A stretch of DNA of 64,000 nucleotides from Thermodesulfobacteriota bacterium (GCA_965215275.1 OZ244044.1:704001-768000); one strand, 5' to 3'. Numbered from the stretch's first letter, positions 1 through 63,643 are shown. Notes: generated by a model not told the origin, from the letters alone. Made by a program: numbers and translations.

Positions 1-180
1 ACTGAGAGCTTTCCGTCAGGATATCTACTGGCTGCTTACGGGAGAAGAAGTGTATTTATCTTTTTAAACCTTCTTTTTTGATATTCAATGTTTTCAGTAC
101 CCTAGGGTCCCACTGCAAGATCTTCCATCCGTTTAAAACATCGTCTTTGTTCATTTAGCATAGCTACTTGTATAATTCCC
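1..180. mobile_element. Right end of an IS1595-like TIR-bounded cassette that extends left out of the window
   Basis: Ends in TGTATAATTCCC (reverse complement GGGAATTATACAAGTAGCTATGCTAAA). 1-50 resembles 17150-17200 and 134-180 resembles 51940-51986; both of those lie downstream of the subtilase-like genes. Confidence 0.6.
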
Positions 181-1340
181 TAAATTAAACTGCACTGCAT
201 TCCCTTTAATCTCTGTCTTGCCGTCTTACAGTAATCATCAGAAATATCTATCCCAAGATATCTTCTACCTAGCTTATGTGCAACAACACTCGTTGTACCA
301 ACACCATTAAATGGATCTAATACAATATCTCTTTTGTAACTGAAGAGTTTCAGAACTCTCTCTACTAGTTTCTCTGGGAACATTGCAGGGTGTCCGTATT
401 CTTTCATCTTTCTTTCAGGTGCAAGTGACCACTTGCCAGTAACCCATTGTTTAAATTCATCAGCAGAGATATCTATATCGTCTTTCAATCCTGTCTTTTT
501 TAGATCTCCTTTGCAAAATACTTCTAAAAACTCCCATGTATATTTCAAGTAAGGATTGCTCGGACTTTTCCAACTTCCCCAAGCGGTATATTTACAGTTG
601 TAGTTATTCTTCTCCCATAATATCTCACCTTTCCATATGAGTTTTTCCTTTATAAAAAAGCCGCTGATTATATGGTGGCTCGGAATATAATCAGAAAAAA
701 GCGGCTGAACGTTAACTATTATTCTTCCACCATACTTAACAACCCTTATACATTCCTTGAATACTTTAAACAGTTTTTCAAAGTACTCTTCCCAATAGTG
801 TGCATCTTTATTGTGAGCATAGTCCAACCCAAAATTATAGGGAGGAGAGGTAAAAACCAGATCAACAGAATTATCAGGAACGTCCTTTAACACTGTTTCG
901 CTGTCACCTTTAATTATCCTGTCCTGATATTTATCCGGCAATTCATTATTGATTTTAGAAAAAGTACTGTCTTGAGCGTAATAATACTGCGTTCTTGCCG
1001 TCTCTTTGTTCTTCCTGTCCTTTACTTTTCTTTCTTTGTTGTAGTCAATGTAATTCCTTTTGCTGCCACTTATACTGTAACTTTTTATCTGTTCTATTAA
1101 TCCAGTAATATCGCTAATAATTGACCTGTTCACGGTCCCATTCAGTAAAGTGCTCTGATCTTTTAACTTTGTAATATCGACCGTCTTTAGCAAGACAGTG
1201 ATATTTTTCCCATCATGCTCTATTCTCAGATCGCTTTTATCAAAAGTCTTGTTAAGAACCTCAATGGTGTACAAGTCTTTTTTGCTTAGCCTCCTGTCGT
1301 AACTCAAGGTCAGTTCTTTGTATTTTCCCGTATTATTCAC
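180..1340 (-). CDS. Site-specific DNA methyltransferase (N4-C/N6-A, beta-type motif order) with ~130-aa N-terminal extension
   Basis: DLVFTSPPY catalytic motif precedes HPAMFP and the VLDPFNGVGTT SAM-binding motif. Confidence 0.9.
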   Translation of the reverse strand: MNNTGKYKELTLSYDRRLSKKDLYTIEVLNKTFDKSDLRIEHDGKNITVLLKTVDITKLKDQSTLLNGTVNRSIISDITGLIEQIKSYSISGSKRNYIDYNKERKVKDRKNKETARTQYYYAQDSTFSKINNELPDKYQDRIIKGDSETVLKDVPDNSVDLVFTSPPYNFGLDYAHNKDAHYWEEYFEKLFKVFKECIRVVKYGGRIIVNVQPLFSDYIPSHHIISGFFIKEKLIWKGEILWEKNNYNCKYTAWGSWKSPSNPYLKYTWEFLEVFCKGDLKKTGLKDDIDISADEFKQWVTGKWSLAPERKMKEYGHPAMFPEKLVERVLKLFSYKRDIVLDPFNGVGTTSVVAHKLGRRYLGIDISDDYCKTARQRLKGMQCSLI

Positions 1341-1461
1341 CTCATACTTACCTTGCTTGCCAGACGCTCTGAAGCTATCACAATGCGGACATCGTGTGGT
1401 TTACCTTTCCATCCCTCCACCTAACAACGAAATCTATCACTGAAACTTCATCAGGGATCTG
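1341..1461 (-). pseudogene. Frameshifted relic of an IS1595-family transposase N-terminal Zn-ribbon
   Basis: Read across two frameshifts: QIPDEVSVIDFVVRWR / WKGKP / RCPHCDS. This matches the typical IS1595 N-terminus pattern PDE...RW.G.P.CPHC.S. A degenerate end (TATATAATTCAC) lies upstream at 1589-1600. Confidence 0.6.
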
Positions 1462-1610
1462 TTATATAAGATACAGGTGAAAACATATCATAAAACAGTA
1501 ATTTTGTCAATAAAAACTTAATTAATTCAGTAAGTTATATCAAAAATAAAAGTATTTACGACAGTCAGTTATACTTTCAGGGTAATTTTATATAATTCAC
1601 TGATCCGAAT

Positions 1611-10633: not shown

Positions 10634-11929
10634 GGGGACTATATACTTAAGTATCCAAACTACTTAAAAAAAGCAAGGGAATAAGGTAAAATTACAAATA
10701 TGAAAGAAGGTAAGACAATAAGAACGGTAAGGCAGAGGTTGAGATCAAACAACAGGAAAAAGTTTCATAAACTTTCCTCTACTGCTGGCTGTTGCAGGTT
10801 TGTATGGAATCACTTTACAGGGATTTTAAGGGATAACGATTTTAATGATGGTTATGGTCATGAGAGTTTAGGGAATTTTTTAAGAGAGTTTAAGAAAGAA
10901 GAAAAGAACTACTTTCTGAAAGAAGCATCTGCTTACATACTTCAGCATTATTTACTGGACCTTACAAATGCCTGTAAGAGATACAGGGATGGAAAATCGG
11001 GACAACCTAAATTCAAGAGTAAATTAAAAACTACTCCTTCGTTTCCGGTAAATTATCAGTCAGCTAAACTGTCAGACAATAACTGGGTCCGTATTTTAAA
11101 GGTTGGATGGTTCAGGTTGGCAGGTAAGAATCCTTATCCTGATGGAAAGTTCCTTTCTGGCAGGATCAAGAAGGAATGCGGTAAGTGGTATGCGTACCTT
11201 AGCTATGAGATAGATGAAACTAAAAAGGAAAAGAAAGAAGTAAGAGTTGTAGCAATGGACAGGAATTCAAGACAGGTTACGCTGTCTGACGGACAGGTTT
11301 TTAAGTTATCTGATGATGAACTTACAGAAGCAAAGATACGCAGATACCAAAAGAAACTTGCACGTCAGGAAGAGGGAAGTAACAGGTGGAGAATTACTAA
11401 GGAAAGGTTGCAGAAACTTCACAGGAAGCTGGCAAACAGACAGAAGGACTGGAGACATCAGGTTACAAGAAAGATCTCCGATCTTTATGACGTTCCTGTA
11501 CTTGAGAGACTTAATACACAAGGGATGACAGCCAGAAAGAAATGGAAGAACTTTCGCAAGATGAACAGGAACATTCGTGCTACTGGCTGGTTTGATATGA
11601 AAAGGATGCTGGATTATAAGTGTAATGCTACTGAAGAAGTTCCAGCACCATATACCAGTCAAACCTGTTCTGAATGCGGACACAGATCTCCTGACAACAG
11701 AAGATCGCAATCCAGATTTAAGTGTATATCTTGCGGTTATGAAGTTAATGCTGACTTAAATGCTGCATTTAACCAGCTTGAAACTGGAATAAAACAAATT
11801 ATAGCCTCAGGGAAAGGGGTGATTGGACGGGGAGACTGCAGAGGGGTTGGGGACAGGAACTGGTCTATGACTCGTCAAAGAGAACTTTTAGTATCTGTTT
11901 AGTTTTGGCTACTTAAGTATATAGTTCCC
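10634..11929 (+). mobile_element. Non-autonomous TIR element carrying only tnpB; 26-bp TIRs and 8-bp TSD AAATGTTA
   Basis: Left end GGGGACTATATACTTAAGTATCCAAA (10634-10659); right end reverse complement GGGAACTATATACTTAAGTAGCCAAA (11904-11929); 24/26 identical. AAATGTTA at 10626-10633 and 11930-11937. Confidence 0.9.
10700..11902 (+). CDS. tnpB: TnpB RNA-guided endonuclease with intact RuvC motifs
   Basis: GCCRFVWN, PKFK, RuvC-I AMDRN, RuvC-II VLERL, Zn finger CSECG/CISCG, RuvC-III ADLNAAFN. Confidence 0.93.
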   Translation: MKEGKTIRTVRQRLRSNNRKKFHKLSSTAGCCRFVWNHFTGILRDNDFNDGYGHESLGNFLREFKKEEKNYFLKEASAYILQHYLLDLTNACKRYRDGKSGQPKFKSKLKTTPSFPVNYQSAKLSDNNWVRILKVGWFRLAGKNPYPDGKFLSGRIKKECGKWYAYLSYEIDETKKEKKEVRVVAMDRNSRQVTLSDGQVFKLSDDELTEAKIRRYQKKLARQEEGSNRWRITKERLQKLHRKLANRQKDWRHQVTRKISDLYDVPVLERLNTQGMTARKKWKNFRKMNRNIRATGWFDMKRMLDYKCNATEEVPAPYTSQTCSECGHRSPDNRRSQSRFKCISCGYEVNADLNAAFNQLETGIKQIIASGKGVIGRGDCRGVGDRNWSMTRQRELLVSV

Positions 11930-13543: not shown

Positions 13544-13746
13544 GGTCTTCTTAAAAAAATCAATATATTTAACTGTGCGAAAATAAAATACAGCCTTTGT
13601 ATATTTATACACTTGACAGTCATTCATAATACGAAGTAAAATATCAATGTTATGAAACATTCAAACATAAAAACGCGTAGTTCCATTACCCCCCCCCTCC
13701 GTGTATACCTGATCTTTCAGCCTGGTATAAGTATTTTGTAAGAACA

Positions 13747-16700
13747 ATGTTTAAGATAATCCCCCCCCCCCATTCTATCTAAGTTAGTAATTCCCTTTTT
13801 CTTTCTTCTGTGTTTTGTATCCATTGAGGCATATGGTCAGATCAATAACTGTGACACCAGTACCACCGATTTCAATGATCCCTTATACGGGTGTCAGTGG
13901 CATCTGAAAAATACAGGACAGCTTGGGGCTGTAACTACCTCCGGAGAAGATATAAACATAGAAGGGGTCTGGGATGATAATGTATTCGGTGCTGGAATTA
14001 ATATAGCGGTGGTAGATTATGGTATGCAGACAGATCATGAGGACCTTACTGATAATGTAAATACCAGCCTGAATCATGATTATTCAGGAAGCAGTAACAT
14101 ATACGACCCTTCAGAAACTCGTGGTACACGTGTATCGGGAGTTATAGCAGCAGCGGGAGATAACAGCCTTGGAGTAAGAGGCGTAGCACCACAGGCAAGT
14201 ATCTATGGTTATAATTTAGCTGGTAATTTAACTTCTGCTAACGCAAAGGATGCCATGATCCGTAATAGAGATATAACGGCTGTATCCATCAACAACTGGG
14301 GACCGAATGACGACTTGCCCATTCTCAGAGAGGCTTCATCAGAATGGGAAGAAGGAGTAGGAACGGGCATAAGTGAAGGGTTTGGTGGTAAGGGGGTATT
14401 TTATGTATGGGCAGCTGGAGACGGAGATAAAAATTCAAATTTGGCAGATCACGCTAATTTTGACGAATATTCCAACTACTACGCAGTAACTGCCGTATGT
14501 TCGGTAGATGGAGAAGGGAACAAGAGTTCTTTTTCAGAAGAGGGAGTAAATCTGTGGGTATGTGCTCCAGGTGAAGATATTACAACTACTGATAATAACG
14601 ATGGATATGTTTTTGATGCGAGTGGAACGGCATATTCAGCAGCACAGGTTGCAGGTGTGGCGGCACTGATGAGGGAGGTAAACAGTAAACTTAGCTGGAG
14701 AGACCTTAAATTGATACTTGCAGCTTCAGCTCGTAAGAACGACGCTTCCGACACAAGCTGGGAGACGGGAGCACATAAATACGGTTCTGATACAGAAAGT
14801 TATAATTACAATCCTAAGTACGGTTTTGGTGTGGTAGACGCTGAAGCAGCAGCAGGACTTGCTGAAAGCTGGACTAAAGTTGCAGGGATGAGAACTCAGA
14901 CCGCTTCCTCTGGAACTATTGATATGACAATCCCCGACCGCGGTAGCATTACAAGCACCCTGACCATAGCTAATACTGATCTTTTTACAGAATTTGTAGA
15001 GATAGTTCTCAATTTCACTCACGATTACTTTCCAGAATTGAACATACAGATAACGTCCCCTGACGGTACCGTGTCGCAACTTAATGAGGGATTTTACGTC
15101 CCCGACCCAGATGCGTTTAAGACTTTTTACACGGACAAAACCCATCGTTTTGGTTCAGCCAGACACCTTGGAGAAAATCCTGCTGGAGTATGGACTTTGA
15201 ATATATCTGACACTGGTCGTGATGATTCAGGGACTTTACACTCATGGAGCATTAAAGTCTATGGGCATAAGACCGGAGATACAGTGCCAAGCTTTGACGG
15301 TAAGACGATAGATAATAAGGAATATGTAACGGGCAGTGCAATAACAACAGAAACGCTGCCTGCTGCAACTAACGGAAATGCACCGCTAACTTACAGTATA
15401 ACCCCTGGATTACCTGCCGGATTGGATTTTACCCCTGCTACCCGAGTGATAAGCGGGACACCCACTACTGCAACGAGCAGAGCTACTTATACATATACAG
15501 TTACTGATGCAGAGGGAGATACGGATGAGTTGACGTTCGGTATCACGATATCAGCAGACGTAGAACCAAGTTTCAGTGATACGATAGATGATCAGGAGTA
15601 CATAGCAGGGACAGCAACTAACCTTCCGGTAACACTGCCTGCAGCAACGGGAGGGAACGGAGAATTAAGGTACAGTATAACCCCTGGATTACCGACTGGA
15701 TTGAGTTTTGACATTAACACTCGAGTAATAAGCGGAACACCGGCTGCTGCAGAGAGCAGAACAGCTTATACATATACTGTAACGGATGATGATGGGGATA
15801 CAGCTGATCTGACATTCGATATCACGGTGGCTGCAAATGTAGAACCAGGCTTCAGTGATACGATAGATGATCAGGAGTACGTAGCAGGGACAGCAACAAA
15901 CCTTCCGGTAACACTGCCTGCAGCAACGGGAGGGAATGCTCCATTAACTTACAGTATAACCCCTGGATTACCTGCCGGATTGGATTTTACCCCTGCTACC
16001 CGAGTGATAAGTGGAACTCCGACTACTGCAGCGAGCAGAACAGCTTATACATATACTGTAACGGATGATGATGGGGATACAGCTAATTTGACGTTCGGTA
16101 TCACGATATCAGCAGACGTAGAACCAGGCTTCAGCGATACGATAGCTGATCAGGAGTACATAGCAGGAAAAATGACAAACCTTCCGGTAACACTGCCTGC
16201 AGCAACGGGAGGGAACGGAGAATTAAGGTACAGTATAACCCCTGCGTTACCAACTGGATTGAATTTTGACAATAACACTCGAGTAATAAGCGGGACACCG
16301 GCTGCTGCAGCGAGTAAGAATACCTATACATATACGGTAGAAGACATAGATGGAGATACGACTGATTTGACGTTCGGGATCACTATAGAAGAAAACAGCA
16401 TGCCGGACTTCGGCAGTGAAATGATCACTGATAAGGAGTACTTTACGGGTACAGCAGTAACAGAGACGCTGCCTGTTGCAACAGGAGGGAATCCACCAGT
16501 TACTTACAGTATAACTCCTGATCTGCCAGTTGGATTGAATTTTAACGCATCTACCAGAGAGATAAGCGGAACACCGACTACTGCAACGAATAAAATAACT
16601 TATACATATACTGTAACGGACGAAGATGGAGATGCGGCTGAGTTGAGATTCGGGGTCACTGTAGGATCTGACGTGCCAACCTTTAGCAGTACAACAATTA

Positions 16701-17119
16701 CTAATAAGGAGTATGTGAGAGATACAGCAGTAACAGAAACACTACCTATTGCAGCGGGAGGGAATGGAGCATTAAGATACAGTTTAACACCTGCATTACC
16801 AACTGGACTGGATTTTAACGCAGCTACCCGAGAGATAAGCGGAACACCCACCAGTACATCATCGTCTGATACTTACATGTATACTGTAACAGATGAAGAT
16901 GGGGATATGGATGAGTTGAGTTTCACGATCAGGGTAGTGAATCGTCCTGCTCCGTTACCACCAAGACAAACACCAGGTACTGAAGCTGGCGGAGGAGGAT
17001 GTACGATCTCCGATCAGAGCAATGTTGTTTCTGATCTGCTCGGTGCAGTGGTATCTCTGATGCTTATACCTGTATCTGTAGTTATAAGAAGGAAGATAAG
17101 GTGTCAGATAAAGACTTAA
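13747..17119 (+). CDS. Secreted S8 subtilase-like (catalytically degenerate) + proprotein-convertase P domain + six putative Ig (He_PIG-like) repeats + C-terminal GGGGC-TM-basic anchor; 5' end out of frame at a C11 tract
   Basis: The frame of ORF 14009-17119 is open from 13760 and encodes a signal-peptide-like segment plus NDPLYGCQWHL, as in the paralog at 49832. ATG 13747 is one base out of frame because of C11 at 13761-13771. Confidence 0.8.
15279..16938 (+). repeat. Six tandem ~92-93-aa Ig-like repeats
   Basis: Recurring unit TLPAATGGN..L.YSITP.LP.GL.F...TR.ISGTP.......YTYTVTD.DGD; units 2-4 are spaced 279 nt apart. Confidence 0.9.
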
Positions 17120-17273: not shown

Positions 17274-20200
17274 TTATGCCCGTGCCGAAATAACTGACCC
17301 GCGTCCCAGTTTCATCCTTACATATCCGATCAGATCATGCAGTATCAAATAAAAACACGGGATCAGATAAAGCAATATCATAGTTGAAAAAAGTAATCCG
17401 AAGCCCAGAGCAGTGGCCATCGGAGCAAGGAACGATGCTTCGCCCCTGAATACGAACATGAGGGTCGAGAGACCGGAGAACGTGGTCAGAGTTGTCAAGA
17501 TTATAGGTCTGAACCTATGTTTTGCAGACATTACAACGGCAAAAATGATATTTTGAAACCTGTCTTTTCTCTTATTTATAAAGTCCATAAGCACAAGGCT
17601 GTCATTTACGACTATACCAAACAGGGCAACTATACCAATAATAGCGGGAAGGGTCAGAGGCTCCCCTCTTAACAGTATCCCGGCAGTCACGCCTATAAGC
17701 GTGAACGGTAATATGCTCATTATAATGAACGGCTGGAAGTAGGAACGTAAAATGCTTGCCAGGATCAGATAGATCAGGATTATTGCAGCTATTGAAGCCC
17801 TCATTATATCTCCCATCGTTTTTTTATAATCTTCTGCTTCTCCCGCAAGTCCATACTTATAACCCGGATACTCTTTCAGAAGATCCTTCATATAGGCCAA
17901 GATATTCGAATTAACCTCCTGTGAAGTAGTGAGTTTCTGGTCAACTTCAGCAGTTACCGAAACAGTACGGTTCAGATCTACCCTGTTAATGTTCAAAATG
18001 CCGGGTTTTATCTCAATATCCGCTATTGTTCCAAGGGACACGTTCCTTTTATCGGGAGTGAACACCTGATGCGACTGGAGCAAGCTGATCAGATCTGCCG
18101 AGGAAAAGTCATACTGAACGTTAATATCGGCCTCCTCTTTCCCAATCCTTGTTCGTGCAACGGTAACCCCGTCGGCAATTGCCCTGACCTCTCTTGCAAC
18201 GCTGCCGGTATCAAGTCCGAAAATGGCAGCTTTTCTTTCATCAACGCTGACCCTGAGTTCCGGCTTACCCCAGACGAGATTATCCCTCACTCCATAAACG
18301 CCTTTGTATTTATTAAGCTCCGTCTGTGTCTTTTGTGATATCTCTTCAAGGGTCAACAGGTCCTTGCCAACTATTTCTACATTAACCGGCTTACCGGTCG
18401 GAATACCTACGTCTGATATAAAGTCCAGTTTTTCAGGTCCTACGACCGACCTCTCCACTTCCTCCCGCACCAGGTTCTTCATTTGCAAGCCGTTCTCCTT
18501 TCTCTTGTCAAAATCCTCATATTCAACCATTATGCTGGCAAGGTGTTTCCCGTAAGATGCGGAATCGTTGTTTGTAATATCAATACCGACCATTGAAACC
18601 ATGTTCTTCAATACGTGCTCTGGAACAACCCGCTCGATCACCTCTTCGATCTGTTTTACCGAACTTACCGTATAATTCAGGCTGGACTGCGGGGGATTTT
18701 CCACTCTTATCCTGAATTCTGACGCATCATGCTGATAGAACATCACGTTTGGAAGGCTTCTGATCAGAAAAAAACTGATAAATAAAATAACGGCAAAGGT
18801 ACAGACCACGACGTATCTGTTCCGGAGAGCAAATAACAGACCTTTCAGATAAACCGACCTGATCCTTAAAACCCATCTTCTTTTACCACGGGTCCTTTTT
18901 ACTTCGGGCTTCATCCAGTCTGAACAGTGCGAAGGCATTACCAGGAGTGCTTCGACCAGAGAGACGAACAGAGCAAAGATTGCCACCGTAGGTATAATAG
19001 ATAGAAACTCACCTATTTCCCCAGTTGCAAACAACAAAGGTATGAACGCCGCAATATTGGTAAGCACCGTTGCTATGACCGGCAAGGTTACCTCTTTTGT
19101 TGCTTTTATCGCGGCTTCGCGAGGGGGAACGCCCTGAGAAATGTACCTCTGAACGTTCTCCACAACGATAACCGCGTCGTCCACCACGATCCCCAGTACC
19201 ATTATCAGTCCGAACATCGAGAGCATGTTAATGGTCACTCCGCTTACGTGCATTAAGATGAACGCACCGAGAAACGAGACAGGAATTCCCAACGCCGCAA
19301 TTACCGCAGCCCTTCTGTTCAGAAAAAGTCCAAGCAGCACTAAAACAAAGAACAGCCCCATCCCACCGCTTTTTAACATGCTCTTAAGCCTTTTCTCCAC
19401 CCAGTGAGAAGTATCATTTGTGTCATAGACCTTTACTGACTCAGGGAGCGTACCTTGAAACTCGGACAGGAACCGTCTTATATTCCTGACTATATCAATG
19501 GCATCCGTATCTTTCTGTTTATTTATCCAGAAAGTAATTGAAGGATCGCCGTTAACTCTTGAGGTCGTTACGACCTTATCTTCTCCGATAGTTACCGAGG
19601 CAATGTCTTTTATCAGTACGTGTTTTCCCTGCGGGTCGCTTGTTACCGGTATATCTAAAATATCATCCACGTTGTAGATCTTGCCCGTGGTTCTTACCAG
19701 AAACTCCGTTTTGTCCTGTAAGTAGCTCCCGCCGGGAAGGTCCAGGTTCTTCCTGATAACGGCACTTGATATCTGGTCAATACCGATCCTGTATTGATGC
19801 ATCTTTCTATAGTCCAGCCTGATCCAGAACGCCGGGTCGCCAACTCCTGAAAGAACGATACTGTCAACCCCTTCAATGAGCTGCAGTTTATCCTTGAGCT
19901 TAACGGCGTAACGTCTGAGCGTTTCTCTGGGAACGTCTCCGGCAAGAGCAACGTTCAGCAGAGGAAAGCCCGTAGTTATCTCTTCGATCACCGGATCTTC
20001 TGCATCTTCGGGAAGCTCGGCCTTTACTATTGAGATCTTGGAATCAATGTCCCGTGTGACCTCTAACAGGTTCTCTCCCGTTTCTAACTCTGCACTTATG
20101 ACGGACAGACCTTCGAACGACGTGGACCTTAAAACCCTGATCCCGGAAGTGTTTTTTATTTCCTCCTCGATCGGGACCGTTACCAGTTTTTCAACGTCTT

Positions 20201-20369
20201 CAGCGGACGCTCCGGGAAAAATGGTCTTTACCTTGACTACTTCAAGTTTTACCGAGGGGAATATCTCAAGCGGAAGAACAAGTGCGAACACCAACCCTAT
20301 GACTATGATCGCACCCATCAGAAGGTTGACGAAAACGGAATTTCTAACGGAAAAATCAGCTATGTGCAT
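17274..20369 (-). CDS. RND efflux transporter permease (AcrB family)
   Basis: 1031 aa; GIVVDDAVIVVEN, GIVVNDSLV, RFRPIILTTLTT. Confidence 0.93.
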   Translation of the reverse strand: MHIADFSVRNSVFVNLLMGAIIVIGLVFALVLPLEIFPSVKLEVVKVKTIFPGASAEDVEKLVTVPIEEEIKNTSGIRVLRSTSFEGLSVISAELETGENLLEVTRDIDSKISIVKAELPEDAEDPVIEEITTGFPLLNVALAGDVPRETLRRYAVKLKDKLQLIEGVDSIVLSGVGDPAFWIRLDYRKMHQYRIGIDQISSAVIRKNLDLPGGSYLQDKTEFLVRTTGKIYNVDDILDIPVTSDPQGKHVLIKDIASVTIGEDKVVTTSRVNGDPSITFWINKQKDTDAIDIVRNIRRFLSEFQGTLPESVKVYDTNDTSHWVEKRLKSMLKSGGMGLFFVLVLLGLFLNRRAAVIAALGIPVSFLGAFILMHVSGVTINMLSMFGLIMVLGIVVDDAVIVVENVQRYISQGVPPREAAIKATKEVTLPVIATVLTNIAAFIPLLFATGEIGEFLSIIPTVAIFALFVSLVEALLVMPSHCSDWMKPEVKRTRGKRRWVLRIRSVYLKGLLFALRNRYVVVCTFAVILFISFFLIRSLPNVMFYQHDASEFRIRVENPPQSSLNYTVSSVKQIEEVIERVVPEHVLKNMVSMVGIDITNNDSASYGKHLASIMVEYEDFDKRKENGLQMKNLVREEVERSVVGPEKLDFISDVGIPTGKPVNVEIVGKDLLTLEEISQKTQTELNKYKGVYGVRDNLVWGKPELRVSVDERKAAIFGLDTGSVAREVRAIADGVTVARTRIGKEEADINVQYDFSSADLISLLQSHQVFTPDKRNVSLGTIADIEIKPGILNINRVDLNRTVSVTAEVDQKLTTSQEVNSNILAYMKDLLKEYPGYKYGLAGEAEDYKKTMGDIMRASIAAIILIYLILASILRSYFQPFIIMSILPFTLIGVTAGILLRGEPLTLPAIIGIVALFGIVVNDSLVLMDFINKRKDRFQNIIFAVVMSAKHRFRPIILTTLTTFSGLSTLMFVFRGEASFLAPMATALGFGLLFSTMILLYLIPCFYLILHDLIGYVRMKLGRGSVISARA

Positions 20370-20372
20370 ATA

Positions 20373-21491
20373 CTATCGTGTAATAACTCTTACTTTCTGT
20401 CCGCTTATCAGACCGGCACCACCCTCAACGATTATCAGGCAGTCCGGGGGCAGCATCCCGGCAGGAACAAATCCCGTTTTATCGTCCACCCAGGTAACTT
20501 CCACCGGTACTCTTAAGCTCTTACCTCTCTGCACCACAAAGATAAAGAATTCATCTGCACTGGACAGGACCGCGGTACGAGGTACGCTGACCACGTTACT
20601 GATACTTTTTTCCGGGACCTTTACTTCTATGATCTCCCCTGGCCACCAGTCAGTTCCATCAGGTATTATCTTTATCTCCACCTCGTAGGGTCCGTTACCG
20701 TCCGAGATCCTGCTAACGCCCACGACCTTACCTTTGCCACGTTCGGTAATCCCCGGTGAACCCGCTTTCAGATCGACCACTGTCCCGGCCTTTATGAACT
20801 TTGCCACCCTGGCTTCAGTTGCTGCGATCAGCCTTTTGTCGTTCAGATCAACTACCTTTGCAACCAGGTCGTTTTTAAACACTTCCTGTCCAACGTCAGG
20901 AACGACCCTTATTACGCTTCCTTCTATCGGAGACCTTAACTTCAGACCGTCAAAATCAAATTCTGCCCTTTTATAAAGAGCCTCGACCACCCTTGTATTT
21001 GCTGTTTCAATTTCAAGCTGACTTTTACTCAGATCAAGTCTGTCTCTGGAGATAATCCCCTTTTCAAACAGGGTCCGGTTCTGTGCGTACTGTCGTTTTG
21101 TCTCCTCCAGTTTTGCTTTTGAGGCTTTCAGTCTGAACTCCAGCTCCTGGAACTCAGCCGTTCTTCTCTCGTCAGAAAGTTCTAATATGATCTCTCCTTT
21201 CTTAACCCCGTCACCTCTTTTTGAGTATATCTTACTTACCCAGCCGCCAGTGCTGGCATGAACGTTAACGGTTTTACCCCCTTCAACGCGGCCGATCAGC
21301 TTTCTGTACAGCAGACCGTCCGAGGCAGACGGTGAAATAACCTTCACAGGCCTTGGTACCTGCACGGGTGCGACCTTTGCCGCATCGGAACGAACGGAGG
21401 TCAATCTTAAATACAGACCGGACAGAAGTAACAGGAAAGCACCAACTATCAGTAAAAAAGCAGTCCACTGTTTTTTTGTGGTCTTAGACAT
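20373..21491 (-). CDS. RND periplasmic adaptor (membrane fusion protein)
   Basis: N-terminal TM, lipoyl-like half motifs (GDGVKKGEII; LRSPIEG) around a coiled coil; adjacent to the permease. Confidence 0.88.
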   Translation of the reverse strand: MSKTTKKQWTAFLLIVGAFLLLLSGLYLRLTSVRSDAAKVAPVQVPRPVKVISPSASDGLLYRKLIGRVEGGKTVNVHASTGGWVSKIYSKRGDGVKKGEIILELSDERRTAEFQELEFRLKASKAKLEETKRQYAQNRTLFEKGIISRDRLDLSKSQLEIETANTRVVEALYKRAEFDFDGLKLRSPIEGSVIRVVPDVGQEVFKNDLVAKVVDLNDKRLIAATEARVAKFIKAGTVVDLKAGSPGITERGKGKVVGVSRISDGNGPYEVEIKIIPDGTDWWPGEIIEVKVPEKSISNVVSVPRTAVLSSADEFFIFVVQRGKSLRVPVEVTWVDDKTGFVPAGMLPPDCLIIVEGGAGLISGQKVRVITR

Positions 21492-21661
21492 ACTGGATTC
21501 CCGGTCTATAAACGGTTAAAAATATGGTAAAAAATTAACTGAAAATTTGCTTTTCGTTAGGAACGGTTTTTATTATAACTTGTTTTGTTTAATAAAAGGT
21601 TGCATTTTATCAGTTTTTCTGAAATAATCCTTATTTAAAAAGAGTTTTAAAAGGAGGAAAC

Positions 21662-21964
21662 ATGGCTACAAAACCAATGAAAAAATCAGAACTATTCTCT
21701 CAGATCGTAGAGAATACAGGTATGCCTAACACCACTGCCAGCAAGAAGTCAGTTGGTAAGATCGTTGACGCATTGATCAATATTGCATATCAGGAAACTA
21801 AGGACAAGGGAGAATTTACAGTACCCGGACTGGGCAAACTGTCCCTCCAGGACCGCAAAGCCCGGACTGGACGTAACCCCGCTACTGGAGAGGTTATAAA
21901 CATTCCGGCCAAGAAGGTCGTGAAGTTTAAAGTTTCCAAAATTGCCAACGATAACATCTTATAG
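21662..21964 (+). CDS. hup: HU family DNA-binding protein
   Basis: GLGKL, RKARTGRNPATGEVINIPAKKVVKFK; RBS AAGGAGG. Confidence 0.93.
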   Translation: MATKPMKKSELFSQIVENTGMPNTTASKKSVGKIVDALINIAYQETKDKGEFTVPGLGKLSLQDRKARTGRNPATGEVINIPAKKVVKFKVSKIANDNIL

Positions 21965-28983: not shown

Positions 28984-28996
28984 GGTAACAGGATAA

Positions 28997-34715: not shown

Positions 34716-34735
34716 CGGACGGCAACAATCCCAAT

Positions 34736-36214: not shown

Positions 36215-36527
36215 TCTTATTATTAAAGATTCTGAGCAGATGACCGAAAAACTTAATGATCTCGACTGTGCACTACTTAACTTCACAAAGATCCCCAGAC
36301 CTGAATTTCCAACGATTAACGCCGGACTTGAATTGAAAACAACAGGCGAGTTATCTTTTAAATATGATTACTTCTTCAACCCTGAATCGGAGTACGAACT
36401 CAGCCTTCTGCATTCAATCCTTGATCAAGTTCATATCGACCTGTACTTCCTGACCGGTACTTCCGAACTATGCCTCAGAACGAAAATGGAAAGAACGGAA
36501 ATTGAACAATTGAAAAATTGCCTCTGA
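36099..36527 (+). CDS. Hypothetical protein
   Basis: 142-aa ORF with core-like composition; its 5' end is duplicated at 35176-35292. Confidence 0.6.
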   Translation: MEIISPFSSHTLDFSNELRIELSVIESGLIVTKAGDSVVLIIKDSEQMTEKLNDLDCALLNFTKIPRPEFPTINAGLELKTTGELSFKYDYFFNPESEYELSLLHSILDQVHIDLYFLTGTSELCLRTKMERTEIEQLKNCL

Positions 36528-39191: not shown

Positions 39192-39195
39192 GTTT

Positions 39196-41070
39196 CTATT
39201 TTGATGTTTTAAGAAATTTCACACTGTTCACACTGCCTTGATATTTATAAAATACTCGTGCCGAACCCGCATCATTAAACAGGATATTGATATGGTGTAT
39301 TGCGTTAGGGTATTTACCAACTTCCAATTCCCTCTTACCAATAAAACCACGTGTACGCACTATATTTTCTTTATCAATTGATTCGTTATCTCTATACCCG
39401 GATATACTTCTGGGTTCATGTATAGCAACTGACCCATCGGCACTTAATAAAAAGTTCCCTATGTAGTTAATTAAATATTGTGGGACTATTTTCTTTCCAA
39501 GAAGTTTTGAAAGTTCTCTAACTTTTTGTAAACTTGATGTTGTATTTTTATTTAAGATTTTTTTAATATCACCCTCAAAATATCCATAATCAAACAATTC
39601 AAAACTCATTTCACCACTATCAATCACAACGCGAGCCTTATCGACACTGCTACGTGCGGTGGCAGCAATTCTAGTACTCTCTAACCAGACGGGGGTGCCG
39701 TTGCCGTTGCGCCTAGAATCCAGAGATAGTCGATGAAAAATAAAACATTTTTGCCAATCAAGATAAAGTGCTTTGGGAATTGTTAATTCAAAATACTCCA
39801 AGTAATCTTTCCGAAACCCAAACATGCGTGCACGCTGTATATAAGTATCTTGTTGTATCTTATGTTTAACATCGCGTGTAAAGAACATTGCTAATAAGTT
39901 ATCAAAAGTAACACCTCTTGAGACAATGTTACCACCGATCACAACGGTAAATGGTGAAGTTGGATCGGTTGCGGTTCTGTTGTTGGCGGCGTTTTGCTCC
40001 TTGTCGCTGTTCATTACAACGATATTATTTCTGGCGTTGTTTTCAATTATATACCTTGTAATTTCGTGTGCTTTGTCAATATATCGTTCAGTAGCAATAT
40101 CAAAAATATATTTGTAATACTTTTCGTGTTGTTTGCTTGATTCGTCTCTTAGTATCTCAAAGGACTTAACGATTTCTTTTTTGTCCTTGGAGTGGTCTGC
40201 TTTCCTACCACTTGTGTGCACTAAAAAAGAATAATTGAGTTCTTTTTTATTTATTTGTGTATTGAGATACGCCACATTAACCATAAAACTAAACAGTGCC
40301 GTTCGCAGATATGCTGGGTCATCGCCCTCATCAGGTAACTTATGCAATCTAAAGGGAAAATCGGAGAGTGATGATGGAAAGAATTTTTCGTGTCCTGTGT
40401 AGTTTGAGTGTGGTGGAAAGTCTATCCATGACTCGTTCTGATTATCGTGAGTTTTATTTAAATCAAGACGAGCGGGAGTGGCAGTTACACCAATATACAC
40501 CCCATCATTACCAATGAGTTCACCGGTTAGTTCGTTAATCCTACTCCGTTTATCTTCATTAATTCTTGAATTCGGCGTAGCATAATCTGCTTCATCATCA
40601 ATAATTACTTTTTTCTGGCTGCACGAAGCAAGTTTATCAATCAATTTTTCCAAATCACGTGCGTTCTTTTTAGAAAAAATTACCCACTCTCCATCTTCGA
40701 TTTTTACAATTTCAGACAAAATCTCCTTGGATTTTTTTGGAGCAGGAGATAAACCAGATCGCTGAAAACGCTCTAAATTTTGACCAAGAAGTTGGACACT
40801 ATCATTGAGTAAAACAACAATAATTTTGAAACCTTCGTCGAGCAACTTGGCTGTTAAGGCAATCATCATCTCGGTTTTACCGCTTTGTGGCTCACCATAA
40901 ATAACGAAAGAACATTGCCCCTTATTTATATTTTCAACTGATTCCTCAACAACTTTTTTAATGCGATCAACTTCCTTATTATCAGAAGTCAATTGCCTTA
41001 GTCGTCGTTCATAACGACTGTCATCCACTATCTCTTCTTTTAATGCTTCCAAGTCAAATGTTGTACTCAT
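39196..41070 (-). CDS. SF2-helicase-like ATPase with Z1 domain
   Basis: Walker A GEPQSGKT, IIDDEAD, YIGVTATP, Z1 signature VIGGNIVSRGVTFDNL...DTYIQRARMFGFR. Confidence 0.85.
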   Translation of the reverse strand: MSTTFDLEALKEEIVDDSRYERRLRQLTSDNKEVDRIKKVVEESVENINKGQCSFVIYGEPQSGKTEMMIALTAKLLDEGFKIIVVLLNDSVQLLGQNLERFQRSGLSPAPKKSKEILSEIVKIEDGEWVIFSKKNARDLEKLIDKLASCSQKKVIIDDEADYATPNSRINEDKRSRINELTGELIGNDGVYIGVTATPARLDLNKTHDNQNESWIDFPPHSNYTGHEKFFPSSLSDFPFRLHKLPDEGDDPAYLRTALFSFMVNVAYLNTQINKKELNYSFLVHTSGRKADHSKDKKEIVKSFEILRDESSKQHEKYYKYIFDIATERYIDKAHEITRYIIENNARNNIVVMNSDKEQNAANNRTATDPTSPFTVVIGGNIVSRGVTFDNLLAMFFTRDVKHKIQQDTYIQRARMFGFRKDYLEYFELTIPKALYLDWQKCFIFHRLSLDSRRNGNGTPVWLESTRIAATARSSVDKARVVIDSGEMSFELFDYGYFEGDIKKILNKNTTSSLQKVRELSKLLGKKIVPQYLINYIGNFLLSADGSVAIHEPRSISGYRDNESIDKENIVRTRGFIGKRELEVGKYPNAIHHINILFNDAGSARVFYKYQGSVNSVKFLKTSK

Positions 41071-42395
41071 GCTTTTTTCATTATCACAATATATTCGTAT
41101 TGGTATGCCATCTTTTTATTTGTGTTGGAATGACTAGTAAATTTTCCCGTCTTAATATCACGCCACGGAGTAATAGCTTTATTGTTTGCTGCTTCTCTTT
41201 TTATAAACTTTACCTTTTTAAATCCGAGATTGACCATTTGTTCCGCAGCAACCTCGGCGTTATGTATTTTTACATCCTTTAGATTCGTATTTCCAATAAC
41301 AATGCAGGCATGAGCACCTTTCTTTAAGACATTGTACATTTCGGTAAATGCCATATTCATATCGGAAAAATAATTTCCAACATTAGTAGCAAGTGGTTTT
41401 TTCTTTTTTGCTAACTTGCCGACAATGTTTTCAGCTAGCACGCTGTTGTAGTGAATCGCTGACTTGTTTTTATGTTTTGTCCCTATAAAATTTTTTCTAA
41501 ATTTTGAAAAATCTGATGCATGTTTATTCCAGTGCTTAAAATCAGGGTCATTACCAAACCACAGTAATGAAAGTTGGTGTAAATCAGCATATTCATAAGA
41601 TATAACATACGGTGGTGATGTTACTATCAAATTTATTGAATTCTGTGCAACAGGCAATTTTTTTGTTGCATTTCTACGATACATTTTTGCAGGAATATTA
41701 AGGTTGCCTCGTTGGTGTAATTCGTTGAAATATGCAGTATTTTTCTTAACCATTGACTTCACATGTTGCAAGAAGGTTTTTATAGGGAATTGTGGCACTT
41801 TTTTCTTGTCAATCGTTGGCTTGATACTCTTCATTAACCATCTGGAGGCGTTCTTTAAGTTATGCGAAAATGCCACCAAAAAGAACCTTCGCACTTTTCT
41901 CTCTTTTACATGCTTGATATTTGAATAAATATAATCAAGTTCATGAACGATATCCTCGTCAAACCAATAGTAGATACGCTCATTTCGTTTAATATGGTAG
42001 GAGTATTTTTTTTCGGGAGAATATCTTTTCAAATGTAACAGCAAATTTTTAAGTTCTCCATCTAAAATCTCTGGATTTATTGGTGTGACCTTAGCTTGAG
42101 TTATTAATTTTGCAATTGGGTTTACATCTATGCCCACACTTTTTCTACCCAGTAACTTAGATTCAACAAGCGTTGTACCACATCCACCAAATGGATCCAA
42201 AACCGTATCTCCGACATTTGTATATTCGGAAATTAACCTGTCTACTATTTGCGGGATAAATTTTGCCGGATAGCGATGATAGCTGTGCGTGTAAGCACTT
42301 GTGTTCGCTCTTGATTCGTTTGCAAAAGACCACTTTTTACTTGGCTTTAAACCGGAAAATTGTGTCACAATTTTTTTGGTAGTTAAGGTGGTCAT
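41067..42395 (-). CDS. DNA methyltransferase, probably N4-cytosine (alpha-type motif order)
   Basis: THSYHRYPAKFIP; VLDPFGGCGTT precedes IVTSPPY. Confidence 0.88.
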   Translation of the reverse strand: MTTLTTKKIVTQFSGLKPSKKWSFANESRANTSAYTHSYHRYPAKFIPQIVDRLISEYTNVGDTVLDPFGGCGTTLVESKLLGRKSVGIDVNPIAKLITQAKVTPINPEILDGELKNLLLHLKRYSPEKKYSYHIKRNERIYYWFDEDIVHELDYIYSNIKHVKERKVRRFFLVAFSHNLKNASRWLMKSIKPTIDKKKVPQFPIKTFLQHVKSMVKKNTAYFNELHQRGNLNIPAKMYRRNATKKLPVAQNSINLIVTSPPYVISYEYADLHQLSLLWFGNDPDFKHWNKHASDFSKFRKNFIGTKHKNKSAIHYNSVLAENIVGKLAKKKKPLATNVGNYFSDMNMAFTEMYNVLKKGAHACIVIGNTNLKDVKIHNAEVAAEQMVNLGFKKVKFIKREAANNKAITPWRDIKTGKFTSHSNTNKKMAYQYEYIVIMKKA

Positions 42396-42439: not shown

Positions 42440-42528
42440 CGGAGAGGGAGGGATTCGAACCCTCGAAGGGGGTTAAGCCCCTTACTCGCTTAGCAGGCGA
42501 GCGCCTTCGTCCACTCGGCCACCTCTCC
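42440..42528 (-). tRNA. tRNA-Ser(GCT)
   Basis: GGAGAGG acceptor stem, anticodon loop CTGCTAA, long variable arm, GGTTCGAATCC. Confidence 0.95.
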
Positions 42529-42666
42529 TACATGAACAGGTAAAAATAACTTAACAGAAAAAGGGTGTCAATTTGCAGTTACTGGGGGTCATTACACCTC
42601 ACTGCCTCTGATGCTCATACCTTTCAGGATGTAACTCACCGACCATGGCGGCAACGTATCTGCCCT

Positions 42667-49730: not shown

Positions 49731-51986
49731 GGGAAGTATATATTTAACCATGCTAAAATAAAATATAGCCTTTGTATATTGATAGTTATTAACTAAGTAA
49801 GAGATATTATTTATCCATTTGACGTTCAGGCATGATAAAAAGTCAAATAAAAAGAGTTATGAACATGAACATCTTATTTAGAATAATACCCCCCCCCATT
49901 AAGTCAGTAATTCCCTTTTTCTTTCTTCTGTGTTTTGTATCCATTGAGACATATGGACAGATCGATAACTGTGACACCAGTACTACCGGTTTCAATGATC
50001 CCTTATACGGCTGTCAGTGGCATCTGAAAAATACAGGACAGCTTGGGGCTGTAACTACCTCTGGAGAAGATATAAACGTAGAAGGGGTCTGGGATAATGG
50101 CACGTTAGGTGCTGGAATTAACGTGGCGGTGGTAGATGACGGTATGCAGACGGGTCATGCGGACCTTACGGACAATGTAAATACCAGACTGAACCATAAT
50201 TATTCAGGAAGCGGTAATGTATACGACCCTTCAAAAGCTCGTGGTACACGTGTATCGGGAGTTATAGCAGCAGCGGGTGATAACAGCCTTGGAGTAAGAG
50301 GTGTAGCACCACAGGCAAGTATCTATGCTTATAACTTAGCTGGTAACTTCAGCGGTACCAACGCAAAGGATGCCATGGTCCGTAACAGAGATATAACGGC
50401 TGTATCCGTCAACAACTGGGGACCGGATGACACGGCTGTTCTTATAGAGGCTTCATCAGAGTGGGAAGAAGGAGTGAGAACTGGTATAAGAGAAGGGTTT
50501 GGTGGTAAAGGGGTGTTTTACGTATGGGCGGCAGGGGACGGATATGAAGGATCAGATCAGGCTAATCTTGACGAGTACTCCAACTACTACGCTGTAACTG
50601 CGGTATGTTCGGTAGATGGAGAAGGGAACAAGAGTTCTTTTTCAGAAGAAGGAGTAAATCTGTGGGTATGTGCTCCAGGTGAAGATATTACAACTACTGA
50701 TAATAACGATGGATATATTTATGATGCGAGTGGAACGGCATATTCAGCAGCGCAGGTTGCAGGTGTGGCGGCACTGATGAGAGAGGTAAACGGTGACCTT
50801 GGCTGGAGGGACATAAAGCTGATACTTGCAGCTTCAGCCCGTAAGAACGACGCTTCCGACACGGGCTGGGAGACAGGAGCACATAAATACGGTTCTGATA
50901 CAGAGAGTTATAATTATAATACTAAGTACGGTTTTGGTGTGACAGATGCTGATGCGGCAGCAGGACTTGCCGGAAGCTGGACCACTGTTCCACTGATGAG
51001 AACCCTTACTGCTTCCTCGGGTTCCATTGATACGGCAATCCCCGACCGCGATAACGAAAACAGAGTAGACGGAGAAGTTACTGACAGACTGACCATACCA
51101 GATACTTCTCTTTTTTTTACAGAGTTTGTAGAGGTTGAGCTTAATTTCTCTCACACGTTCTTACCAGAACTGGAAATACAGATAACGTCTCCTGACGGTA
51201 CTGTGTCGAAGTTTACTGAGGAATATGTAACAGCAGCTTTCAAAATTATAGACGACACTTCACTCATTATGGATGACTTTAGCTACACGAACAAAACTTA
51301 TCGTTTTGGTTCAGCTAGGCACCTTGGAGAAGCCCCTTCCGGAGAATGGGTTTTGAAGATATCTGACACTTCTCCTGACGATACAGGGACTTTACATTCC
51401 TGGAGCATTAACGTTTACGGGCATAAGGCCGTAGAAGGTACGGCACCAGGCTTTGAAGGTGAGACGATAGATAATAAGAATTATGTGACGGGCAGAGCAA
51501 TAACACCAGAGACGCTGCCTTTGGCAGCGGGAGGGGAGGGAATATTAACTTACAGCCTGTCCCCTCGTTTACCTGCTGGACTTACTTTCAGATCAGCTGA
51601 CAGAACGCTGAGCGGAACACCAACTGCTGCATCTTCTGGCAGGTATATGTATGCAGCGACGGATGAAGATGGAGATAAGGATGAGCTGAGTTTTACGATC
51701 AGGGTAAGAACCCCAGCTGGTCGGACGTCAGGTACTGACGCAGGTGGAGGAGGATGTGTGCTCTCCGATCAGAACGAAGCTATTTCTGATCTGTCCGGAG
51801 CAGTGGCATCTCTGATGCTGATACCTGTATCTGTAGCGATCAGAAGAAGGATAAGGTCTCTCGGATAAAGACCTAGTAATTCACTCCTTTCCAGGACACT
51901 TAACTAACTGATATCTTTCCGTCAGATCTGATGTTGTTAAAAAACATCGTCTTTGTTCATTCAGCATAGCTGCCTGTATAATTTCC
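49731..51986 (+). mobile_element. Degenerate TIR-bounded cassette carrying the subtilase-like gene
   Basis: Left GGGAAGTATATATTTAACCATGCTAAA; right reverse complement GGAAATTATACAGGCAGCTATGCTGAA (18/27). Flanks AAATATAA and AAAGACAA (6/8). Confidence 0.55.
49832..51868 (+). CDS. Secreted S8 subtilase-like (catalytically degenerate) + P domain + one Ig repeat + GGGGC-TM-basic anchor
   Basis: Signal-peptide-like FFFLLCFVSIETYG, NDPLYGCQWHL, VAVVDDG, YGFG, GTLHSWS; close paralog of 13747-17119. Confidence 0.85.
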   Translation: MIKSQIKRVMNMNILFRIIPPPIKSVIPFFFLLCFVSIETYGQIDNCDTSTTGFNDPLYGCQWHLKNTGQLGAVTTSGEDINVEGVWDNGTLGAGINVAVVDDGMQTGHADLTDNVNTRLNHNYSGSGNVYDPSKARGTRVSGVIAAAGDNSLGVRGVAPQASIYAYNLAGNFSGTNAKDAMVRNRDITAVSVNNWGPDDTAVLIEASSEWEEGVRTGIREGFGGKGVFYVWAAGDGYEGSDQANLDEYSNYYAVTAVCSVDGEGNKSSFSEEGVNLWVCAPGEDITTTDNNDGYIYDASGTAYSAAQVAGVAALMREVNGDLGWRDIKLILAASARKNDASDTGWETGAHKYGSDTESYNYNTKYGFGVTDADAAAGLAGSWTTVPLMRTLTASSGSIDTAIPDRDNENRVDGEVTDRLTIPDTSLFFTEFVEVELNFSHTFLPELEIQITSPDGTVSKFTEEYVTAAFKIIDDTSLIMDDFSYTNKTYRFGSARHLGEAPSGEWVLKISDTSPDDTGTLHSWSINVYGHKAVEGTAPGFEGETIDNKNYVTGRAITPETLPLAAGGEGILTYSLSPRLPAGLTFRSADRTLSGTPTAASSGRYMYAATDEDGDKDELSFTIRVRTPAGRTSGTDAGGGGCVLSDQNEAISDLSGAVASLMLIPVSVAIRRRIRSLG

Positions 51987-62604: not shown

Positions 62605-63378
62605 TCACAATATTGAAATATTAATCGGTTTCCTGTTGTTATAATGGTCTTCAATCTCAGAATAATCCATAAAATGACAACGGTTCTTTATATCTTTAAA
62701 TATAGATCTTCCAACTTCCTTATTGTATTTAGTTTTCCTTCCATTAGGAGCAACTAATATAAACTGAGTATTAAAATCCTGTAATTCAAACAACCTTAAA
62801 AGCGAGTCATTAAAATCCGAGGTGTGTTCAACTTCAAATGCTACTTGTGGAAATTCTCTATCATTAAACCAAATAACGTCAATATATTTTGACTTATTAA
62901 TTATTGTTTCTTTGGTGGTAAAGACGGGAATTGTTTCCATTGTAATTATTTTACCCAGTTGCTTATTACCAAAAAAATGTTTTTTATCAGGAGTATAGGT
63001 ATCAAAACTCTGCATATTGCCAATTTCAATTAACATGCCTTGAATATCAGCATGTTTTTGTCCCATAGATGTACTTGCTTTTTTTGGTCGCGGCACTTTA
63101 GCCAGTTGTTTTGTAAGTGCATAAACTCCATACCCAATACAAGTAAATCGGTCCTCGCGTTGAAGTCGCTCTCGGATTGTTGCATCGGGGTCTTTGCCAG
63201 TACGCGGGCGATAATTGTCAAGATTTTTATAGATCAATTTCAACGGTGCATAACCACCGTTGTCACGCAATACCATTTCTATCGCCTTTGAATATGTTAT
63301 CTCCTTGCGAGTGGTCATAATTATATTTACCTCCGATATAACAATTTCTGGTATCGGTTTAACATCAAGACCATACAC
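62605..63378 (-). CDS. HARE-HTH-like domain fused to a PD-(D/E)xK-type restriction-endonuclease-like domain (true start may be ATG 63318)
   Basis: AIEMVL...GK.P.ATIR..LQ...F...G.G.Y.L, then HADIQGML, IDVIWF, AFEVEH; AT-rich. Confidence 0.7.
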   Translation of the reverse strand: MYGLDVKPIPEIVISEVNIIMTTRKEITYSKAIEMVLRDNGGYAPLKLIYKNLDNYRPRTGKDPDATIRERLQREDRFTCIGYGVYALTKQLAKVPRPKKASTSMGQKHADIQGMLIEIGNMQSFDTYTPDKKHFFGNKQLGKIITMETIPVFTTKETIINKSKYIDVIWFNDREFPQVAFEVEHTSDFNDSLLRLFELQDFNTQFILVAPNGRKTKYNKEVGRSIFKDIKNRCHFMDYSEIEDHYNNRKPINISIL

Positions 63379-63427
63379 CGACCTAATACACCTGAAATTT
63401 ATAACTTATTGAATATTTATCAACTGC

Positions 63428-63548
63428 TTACGCCACTTTCCCACAGATTTTCGTTCATTTCTCCTTAAATTCTTCTGCTTTTTCATCAAGTCCTCTCTGG
63501 ATCGCATCTATATCGATAGACAGGTTGAACTGGTCCTTCCATCTGTAA
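63428..63548 (-). pseudogene. thiC: Relic of the thiC 3' end with internal deletion and stop codon
   Basis: YRWKDQFNLSID|IDAIQRGLDEKAEEFKEK*TKICGKVA* resembles the ThiC RW.DQFNLSLD motif joined to the C-terminal tail. Confidence 0.6.
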
Positions 63549-63643
63549 ATAAAGGGGAAATCAAGATTTATTTTTATTTATGTATATAATTCCCAAAGTT
63601 AAAATGGAAAAAACACTTCCGGTGGTGCTACGGGTATTTTAAG

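Follow-up and report, generated by a model that had tools for sequence, protein, structure and literature searches.

In the 64,000-nucleotide stretch of DNA analyzed here (the window; positions 704001 to 768000 of contig C1 of G000, a closed 1.99-Mb bacterial genome), a short recurrent motif marks the ends of IS1595-family transposons, and two of the units bounded by such ends encode only TnpB, an RNA-guided nuclease. From sequence comparison, we consider it probable that IS1595 ends are mobilized in trans, that the guide RNA of TnpB runs through the right repeat of its element, and that cassettes with subtilase-like genes have been copied between ends of the same kind. A more far-reaching version, for and against which we find the case evenly balanced, holds that TnpB was captured at least twice by IS1595, that its guide RNA was rebuilt around a hairpin coevolving with the repeat, that the target duplication serves as the seed and a 1- to 2-base target-adjacent motif (TAM) filters insertions, that the resulting homing is distinct from that of IS605, IS607, and Fanzor1, and that the same ends built ~9% of the genome in the form of mostly inactive surface subtilases. 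The strongest results, namely, the TnpB guide-RNA adaptation and a 57-gene subtilase-like expansion, had not been singled out by the original prediction, which was made from the window and read the motif as the boundary of accessory cassettes driven by IS1595.

IS1595-family ends and transposase-free units

The motif has 6 exact matches in the window (0.02 expected), 12 with at most one mismatch (0.70 expected), and 31 with at most two (11.8 expected), the two-mismatch level being weak on its own; genome-wide, G000 has 84 exact matches. All eight sites listed in the original prediction were recovered where it had placed them, four of them exact (30046, 31575, 33431, and 63583), three with one mismatch (169, 1589, and 49731), and one with two (51975). 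The accompanying claim that all lie at the edges of segments fails for 33431-33442, which is not an element boundary but an end-like copy inside a tnpB element, just before the start codon. A further one-mismatch match, at 46613, falls within clpX and is probably due to chance. The motif extends to ~25 bp, with conservation spanning positions 1 to 25, and a 25-bp position weight matrix trained on G000's own sites recovered 241 sites at a cutoff of ≥14 bits, versus 11, 5, and 10 in three shuffles performed in 50-bp blocks that preserve local AT content, placing the motif far above its background. In contig C17 (1.51 Mb) of G002, a genome of the same family, the matrix recovered 19 sites versus the 241 of G000.

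Transposase-bearing elements identify the family to which these ends belong. G000 has 28 matches to PF12762 (the IS1595 DDE transposase), 14 of them in open frames of 301 to 336 aa; most of the matches sit between the same ends as the motif sites, and none lies within the 64-kb window. Among 130 inward-facing site pairs in G000 that are <8 kb apart, 19 are flanked by a perfect 8-bp duplication, where random end pairing would yield 0.002; perfect duplications of 5, 6, 7, 9, and 10 bp occur at 0, 1, 0, 2, and 0 of the same pairs. Two ends in the window, 10634 and 31586, match the ends of elements with a transposase at 26/26 positions. With a PF12762 transposase, ~25-bp terminal inverted repeats, and 8-bp duplications in AT-rich DNA all present, the motif can be assigned to the IS1595 family, of whose terminal inverted repeat it forms the tip; the earlier assignment to IS1595 is upheld. 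Repeat length, duplication size, and target bias in G000 fit IS1595 elements as characterized in the family description of PMC5704250 (25-bp repeats, 8-bp duplications, and AT-rich targets). A search of papers for a transposase signature of IS1595 subgroups found no definition. The subgroup may be ISNwi1 (ggnnatTAT).

Four units with neither transposase nor TnpB have perfect duplications (G000 17470-21955, 1187080-1187610, 701394-704180, and 1081951-1086077). If a mobile insertion cassette is taken to comprise two insertion sequence (IS) ends, cargo, no transposase, and a duplication, then these four qualify, as do 12 of the 19 TnpB units described below at a duplication of ≥7/8; the subtilase cassette of the window reaches only 6/8. 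Units of this kind, the TnpB-only elements and the cassettes with subtilase-like genes among them, are likely moved by transposases whose genes lie at other places in the chromosome.

Several observations concern the content and fate of individual elements. Five transposase-bearing elements with perfect duplications contain extra open reading frames (ORFs; G000 675417-678070, 1002026-1005187, 1304051-1307389, 1516018-1519071, and 1812584-1815955), several of which resemble DNA methyltransferases at the starts of their sequences. The transposase-free units G000 17470-21955 and 1897941-1900957 have nested ends and carry an ABC-ATPase-like gene together with TPR-repeat genes; counts of TPR and ABC cargo near ends were not specific. 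At G000 29786-30175 and 32069-32458, identical broken transposase pieces lie 2 kb apart in inverted orientation. In the genome G067, one IS1595 element whose 24-bp repeats are perfect is present in ~13 identical, recent copies; many of these lack matching duplications, a pattern expected if copies have recombined with each other.

TnpB elements and the predicted guide RNA

G000 has 23 matches to PF07282, among them 19 full-size tnpB genes, every one of which (19/19) sits alone between inward-facing IS1595-type ends. They fall into three families (8, 3, and 8 copies) and keep the RuvC residues, with 3/19 frameshifted; the duplication is perfect in 9/19 units and 7/8 in 3/19. The window contains two such units.

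10634 to 11929, plus strand: TnpB-only element of family B, 1,296 bp; ends 10634-10659 and 11904-11929; perfect 8-bp duplication AAATGTTA
10700 to 11902, plus strand: tnpB, 400 aa; PF07282, PF01385, and NF040570 above the cutoff; RuvC D/E/D present
31945 to 33502, minus strand: TnpB-only element of family C, 1,558 bp; left end 33477-33502 (motif 33491-33502), right end 31945-31970; perfect 8-bp duplication TAAACTTA
31973 to 33427, minus strand: tnpB, 484 aa; domain and NF040570 matches; RuvC D/E/D present
31945 to 32084, minus strand: predicted guide-RNA scaffold, a conserved stem with a GGGAA loop and then a hairpin of the right-repeat body, ending at the element tip
33431 to 33442, minus strand: internal end-like motif directly before the tnpB start codon; not a boundary

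The two proteins score 214 and 177 bits against NF040570 (cutoff, 100), and their elements have both inverted repeats and a duplication, unlike IS200/IS605 or IS607 elements, which are defined by having neither. The left end of the family B element is the one shared at 26/26 positions with the transposase-bearing element G000 1516018-1519071, and its empty site in G002 keeps one copy of the target. Contigs assembled from four sequencing runs gave no joint skipping the TnpB element over positions 27500 to 36500; one contig spans the element's right junction, and several exit the window at element tips, as expected of copies elsewhere. At G000 1616480-1619604, two family C elements in a back-to-back arrangement are separated by 16 bp and have separate duplications.

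The layout recurs in g10, a genus of another family, where two more TnpB families are each present in 23/36 genomes and the transposase is present in 26/36; it was not found in four genomes of the same family as G000. Of 80 ordinary TnpB loci scanned, 2 have IS1595-type ends. In a TnpB tree (FastTree, with a long-branch warning), both of these loci fall inside a clade with families A, C, and E, and families B and D form a second clade; two captures of TnpB are therefore the simplest reading. We also observed the layout in two other phyla, at L200:1296-2615 (Caldilineaceae), with an 8-bp duplication directly preceded by G, and at L181 (Hyphomonadaceae).

At the right end of these elements, a conserved GAAC is followed by sequence that can base-pair with the repeat body and tracks at least five repeat variants. 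At 66 of 72 tnpB right ends it folds at z < -1, for a segment chosen after the motif had been seen; when a fixed 33-nt segment is used instead, the median z is -1.65 at 57 ends of families A, C, and E and -2.29 at 17 family D ends, compared with -0.02 and +0.38 at the ends of transposase-bearing elements and -0.16 at family D left ends. Covariation was assessed on 27 ends chosen for diversity out of the 72: four of the six hairpin pairs change on both sides, giving a score reached by 0/500 shuffles, and RNAalifold recovers the hairpin helix unprompted. The hairpin has no U run, occurs only at tnpB 3' ends, and follows changes in the repeat. In addition, the GGGAA loop can pair with the terminal TTCCC, with four of the five pairs invariant and mixed covariation, from which we infer a GGGAA:TTCCC pseudoknot at the tip. 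It is thus likely that the transposon end has been folded into the TnpB guide RNA. The guide itself would start at the 8-bp duplication, with the TAM lying outside it; in the family C element of the window, it is predicted to begin at 31944 and run leftwards. Predicted 16-nt guides have no second site in the genome, one poly-T case excepted.

The base that flanks the insertions may indicate the TAM. For family E, 61 loci were examined, and 35 unique insertions with a duplication of ≥7/8 were kept, weaker duplications, duplicates, and other TnpBs being dropped. G stands before the left duplication in 34/35 of these (TG in 20 and GG in 10) and does so across at least five repeat types; the mirror C on the right side occurs in 8/35. 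As controls we used 33 deduplicated TnpB-free IS1595 elements (21 of 40 loci, 4 g10 loci, and 9 from G000), in which G is found at -1 in 9/33 and at -2 in 5/33 and the first base is A in 23/33; the difference from family E for G at -1 has a Fisher P of 6e-10, in counts where the genomes are related, not independent, and each insertion site is independent. Family A of G000 has G at -1 in 7/7 copies with a duplication of ≥6/8 (the eighth is out of register), as against 0/9 transposase-bearing elements of the same genome. In family D (21 unique insertions from 34 loci), a purine is at -1 in 21/21, G is at -2 in 16/21, and the duplication starts with A in 21/21, and in families B and C all flank bases (11/11) are A, compared with 5/9 in controls. 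The signature differs between TnpB families within one genus. We infer that the TAM is the base, or the pair of bases, directly preceding the left duplication, TG or GG in families A and E.

Subtilase-like cassettes and lineage-specific DNA

The ends are also associated with a large paralogous family. G000 has 57 loci combining S8 and P domains, which as stop-to-stop frames take up ~175 kb, or 8.8% of the genome; PF01483 is found at 57 loci in G000, at none in four same-family genomes, and at 1 to 2 in 3/40 relatives, with the reservation that G001 may hold members, its completeness being only 80% and the Ig half of a subtilase gene having DNA matches in it. All 57 form one clade with respect to six outside homologs in a quick tree. 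The Asp-His-Ser triad is intact in 7/57, and the 50/57 without it do not qualify as active S8 peptidases; the copy at 49832-51868 of the window, which reads D-R-A where the six outgroup proteins have D-H-S in the same columns, is predicted to be catalytically inactive. Paralogs lacking the triad are likely to be binding or decoy surface proteins. They form two or three large clades, and the intact ones branch early (the window loci 14009-17119 and 49832-51868 are included in the set).

An inward-facing end lies within 900 bp of 34/57 subtilase loci, compared with 31/561 core ORFs and 32/174 other unaligned ORFs, and both ends are present at 11/57, 0/561, and 0/174, respectively. A BLAST rescue raised the count to 50/57 when the repeat was not required and 41/57 when it was, versus 13/500 control places; its queries were drawn from the family itself, and 34/57 is the figure on which we rely. 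Copying through IS1595 ends likely explains part of the family, most of the events being old.

Lineage-specific DNA was delimited against G002:C17 (~75% of G002, its other contigs not being included), with 547 anchors and 57% of G000 aligned; only 5/241 sites fall inside aligned DNA. Sites are held by 49/87 G000-only insertions, a class defined against one relative, which cannot separate gain from loss, and by 34/71 of those without transposase or tnpB, compared with 3/191 conserved gaps, 2/52 G002-only insertions, 12/49 replaced gaps, and 49/167 rearranged gaps. Insertions holding a site make up 71% of the inserted bases. Sites ≤150 bp from an insertion edge face inward rather than outward by 43:1, and by 21:1 in insertions without transposase or tnpB, and multicopy end families share sequence inside the repeat (0.59) and not outside it (0.29). 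An inward end lies ≤350 bp from an edge in 38/87 insertions and at both edges in 10/87. The enrichment of ends at synteny breaks expected by the original prediction is thus present. Its wider claim, that IS1595 cassettes are the main route of gene gain and duplication in G000, is plausible, but it is weakened by the scarcity of insertions with ends at both edges and by the 38/87 that hold no site.

The remaining ends and cassettes of the window are as follows.

155 to 180, minus strand: 3' end of the subtilase cassette G000 701394-704180, most of which falls outside the window on its left side; duplication TAAATTAA, which is perfect if shifted by one base
1575 to 1600, minus strand: decayed end facing the N6/N4 methyltransferase gene 180-1340; degenerate motif at 1589-1600; the orthologous place in G001:C93 holds a better-kept end
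13563 to 13624, plus strand: remnant, lacking the tip, of the 5' end of a subtilase cassette; lies upstream of subtilase-like gene 14009-17119
30046 to 30071, plus strand: IS1595 end without a partner, matching that of a transposase-bearing element at 25/26 positions; lies in an island at 29.0 to 33.7 kb
31561 to 31586, minus strand: IS1595 end without a partner, matching that of element G000 436372-437613 at 26/26 positions
33666 to 33690, minus strand: decayed end close to the island's right edge; absent from the original list
49731 to 51986, plus strand: transposase-free cassette, 2,256 bp, with decayed IS1595-type ends and one subtilase-like gene; flanks match at 6/8; absent between the same neighbors in G001:C71
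49832 to 51868, plus strand: subtilase-like protein (S8, P domain, and Ig) with Arg and Ala in place of the catalytic His and Ser
63569 to 63594, minus strand: solo end facing an accessory 257-aa gene (62605-63378)

For the methyltransferase gene 180-1340, we rejected a reading as cargo closed by the end at 169-180, which faces the opposite way. Ends 30046 and 31586 bracket a methylase fragment (30414-30668) and a 149-aa gene present in seven copies (30966-31415); they belong to different end families, and the pairing of 30046 with either 31586 or 33690 as one cassette was rejected because there is no common duplication. The 4.8-kb island with these three unpaired ends is missing in G001 (C79). 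For the solo end at 63583 no partner was found at ≥9 bits; immediately to its right (63640-63710) are three short tandem copies of a ~23-bp unit. An AT-rich block at 38706-42395 (a methylase, a Z1/ResIII helicase, and a small ORF) adjoins a tRNA-like conserved stretch at ~42440-42580 and has no IS1595 end at its edges, which suggests an accessory island acquired by another route. The segment 53568-55923, with DUF481 and Fic-domain genes, is an insertion relative to G002 and has no end.

Proposed mechanism, alternatives, and known systems

In the mechanism that we propose, an IS1595 transposase acting in trans would insert a TnpB unit and thereby create the 8-bp duplication. The guide RNA would traverse the right repeat to the element tip, with the repeat body tucked into the hairpin, and the duplication plus the flank would form the guide. 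An empty allele, which offers the TAM, the full target, and the flank, would be cut, with the filled copy then serving as the repair template; the filled allele itself would escape cleavage, its left junction matching only eight guide bases and its right junction having no TAM. Insertions adjoining a TAM would be those retained. Since IS1595 excision may be replicative, according to the family description in PMC5704250, the empty alleles encountered may stem from rare excision or from incoming DNA. As for the subtilases, one founder gene between ends would have been copied to dozens of sites, after which the ends would have decayed or been swapped by recombination and most copies would have lost catalysis.

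Several points weigh against this scheme. Replicative excision would reduce the need for homing. A one-base TAM is short, and the flank A of families B and C is hard to tell from AT-rich targeting, which makes that signal weak. The fifth pair of the pseudoknot is unpaired in 8/27 rows, five ends with a GTCCC tip retain the GGGAA loop, and RNAalifold pairs the loop GGG elsewhere. Of the 11 subtilase cassettes with both ends, only 2 are flanked by a perfect duplication (offset by one base in either case) and 3 by one of 7/8, and 23/57 subtilase loci have no end at ≥12 bits. The 38/87 insertions without a site count here as well, and most segments retain a single end, which can also arise by IS-driven deletion or by an IS landing in dispensable DNA.

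These single ends also fit an alternative that we regard as unlikely, in which the ends are IS1595 scars in dispensable AT-rich DNA with adjacent deletions and the subtilases spread mainly by recombination. It accommodates the 10/87 insertions with both edges occupied, the 32/174 other unaligned ORFs that likewise lie near an end, the only partial agreement of end families with the subtilase tree, and the lack of a duplication at the 30046/31586 pair. It is at odds with the 21:1 inward bias seen even without transposase or tnpB, with end families that are alike inside and not outside the repeat, and with the four transposase-free units with perfect duplications, and it does not explain the TnpB elements. 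Somewhat less credible still is the notion that TnpB is a passive passenger, the flank base reflecting a target preference of the transposase and the hairpin being a terminator or a by-product of the repeat. The controls were not matched transposase by transposase, G at -1 is also shown by several G067 copies of a single autonomous element whose repeat resembles that of family E, and the 3/19 frameshifted tnpB copies fit this notion too. Against it, the G of family E persists across at least five repeat types, compared with 9/33 in TnpB-free elements, the flank base differs between TnpB families of one genus, the hairpin has no U run, is confined to tnpB 3' ends, and tracks the repeat, and the genes keep their RuvC residues.

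The fall in conservation after GAACAGT, with the next 25 to 40 bases varying between copies, could mean that the scaffold ends at GAAC and that the inner right repeat is a fixed guide directing TnpB to IS1595 ends. This we hold to be very improbable: the variable stretch self-pairs with compensatory changes and is therefore not free to guide, and a fixed guide leaves the constant base beyond the left duplication unexplained. Finally, the intergenic and TA-rich character of the motif and its copy just before a start codon (33431) could suggest a TATA-like promoter or regulator site of AT-rich intergenic DNA, a reading that we reject in view of the inward pairs with 8-bp duplications, the identity to ends of transposase-bearing elements, the 19 versus 241 sites, and the 3/191 conserved gaps.

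IS1595 elements with passengers, transposase-free cassettes, and solo tnpB genes in the ends of DDE partners are already known. Mobile insertion cassettes such as MIC231 of Bacillus cereus have IS ends around cargo, lack a transposase, and are moved in trans; the G000 units differ in having IS1595 rather than IS231/IS4 ends and in comprising dozens of copies of one paralog family. Transporter IS elements of the IS1595 family carry passenger genes (MTnSag1/tISSag10 and tISCpe8; PMC5704250), and the G000 elements resemble those described there in their PF12762 DDE transposase, ~25-bp repeats, 8-bp duplications, AT-rich targets, and passengers. Unlike them, most end-bounded units of G000 have no transposase, the cargo includes TnpB and a 57-gene family, and a single 2-Mb genome has some dozen variants of the repeat side by side. 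With the TnpBs of IS200/IS605 and IS607 elements (including IS1341-like solo tnpB), those of G000 share NF040570 and a scaffold that overlaps the 3' end of the gene; such elements lack inverted repeats and duplications in the account of PMC13565253, and the G000 elements have both.

Similar in layout are the DDE-associated TnpB branches DDE-1 to DDE-6, in which TnpB lies between inverted repeats and solo tnpB genes have the ends of transposase-bearing partners and are mobilized in trans (PMC10691335). The G000 TnpBs are likewise solo, between inverted repeats, and provided with partner-like ends; a hairpin that takes the repeat into the scaffold and a TAM outside an 8-bp duplication are not described in the passages of that paper with which the comparison was made. 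The paper names IS630 in its text, IS1595 appearing only in a supplementary list of profiles, and one of the six branches could be IS1595. A 2026 review gives ISL2, IS630, and IS1031 as the DDE partners of TnpB in its relevant section (PMC13565253). Our literature search, with most subscription papers outside its reach, found no paper on TnpB in IS1595 ends.

The same review poses, as an open question, for what reason and by what means RNA-guided nucleases are maintained in prokaryotic DDE transposons with variable duplications (PMC13565253), and the TnpB-IS1595 layout bears on this question. Sequence comparison yields testable predictions for the guide start, the scaffold end, and the TAM and directs attention to compact nucleases whose TAMs are very short; the subtilases provide a measured example of the influence of one IS end system on the accessory genome, a large paralog family included, in a 2-Mb bacterium. 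A parallel is Fanzor1 in eukaryotic DDE transposons, likewise an RNA-guided nuclease in a transposon with terminal inverted repeats and target duplications and with a guide derived from the flank. In Fanzor1, as the review presents it, the 5' duplication lies in the TAM and the 3' duplication in the scaffold, and the terminal pseudoknot is lost (PMC13565253); in the G000 elements, the guide is predicted to start with the variable 8-bp duplication and the TAM to lie beyond it, and the tip pseudoknot has likely been kept. If this is true, these elements have a homing design distinct from those of IS605, IS607, and Fanzor1, with unusually short TAMs.

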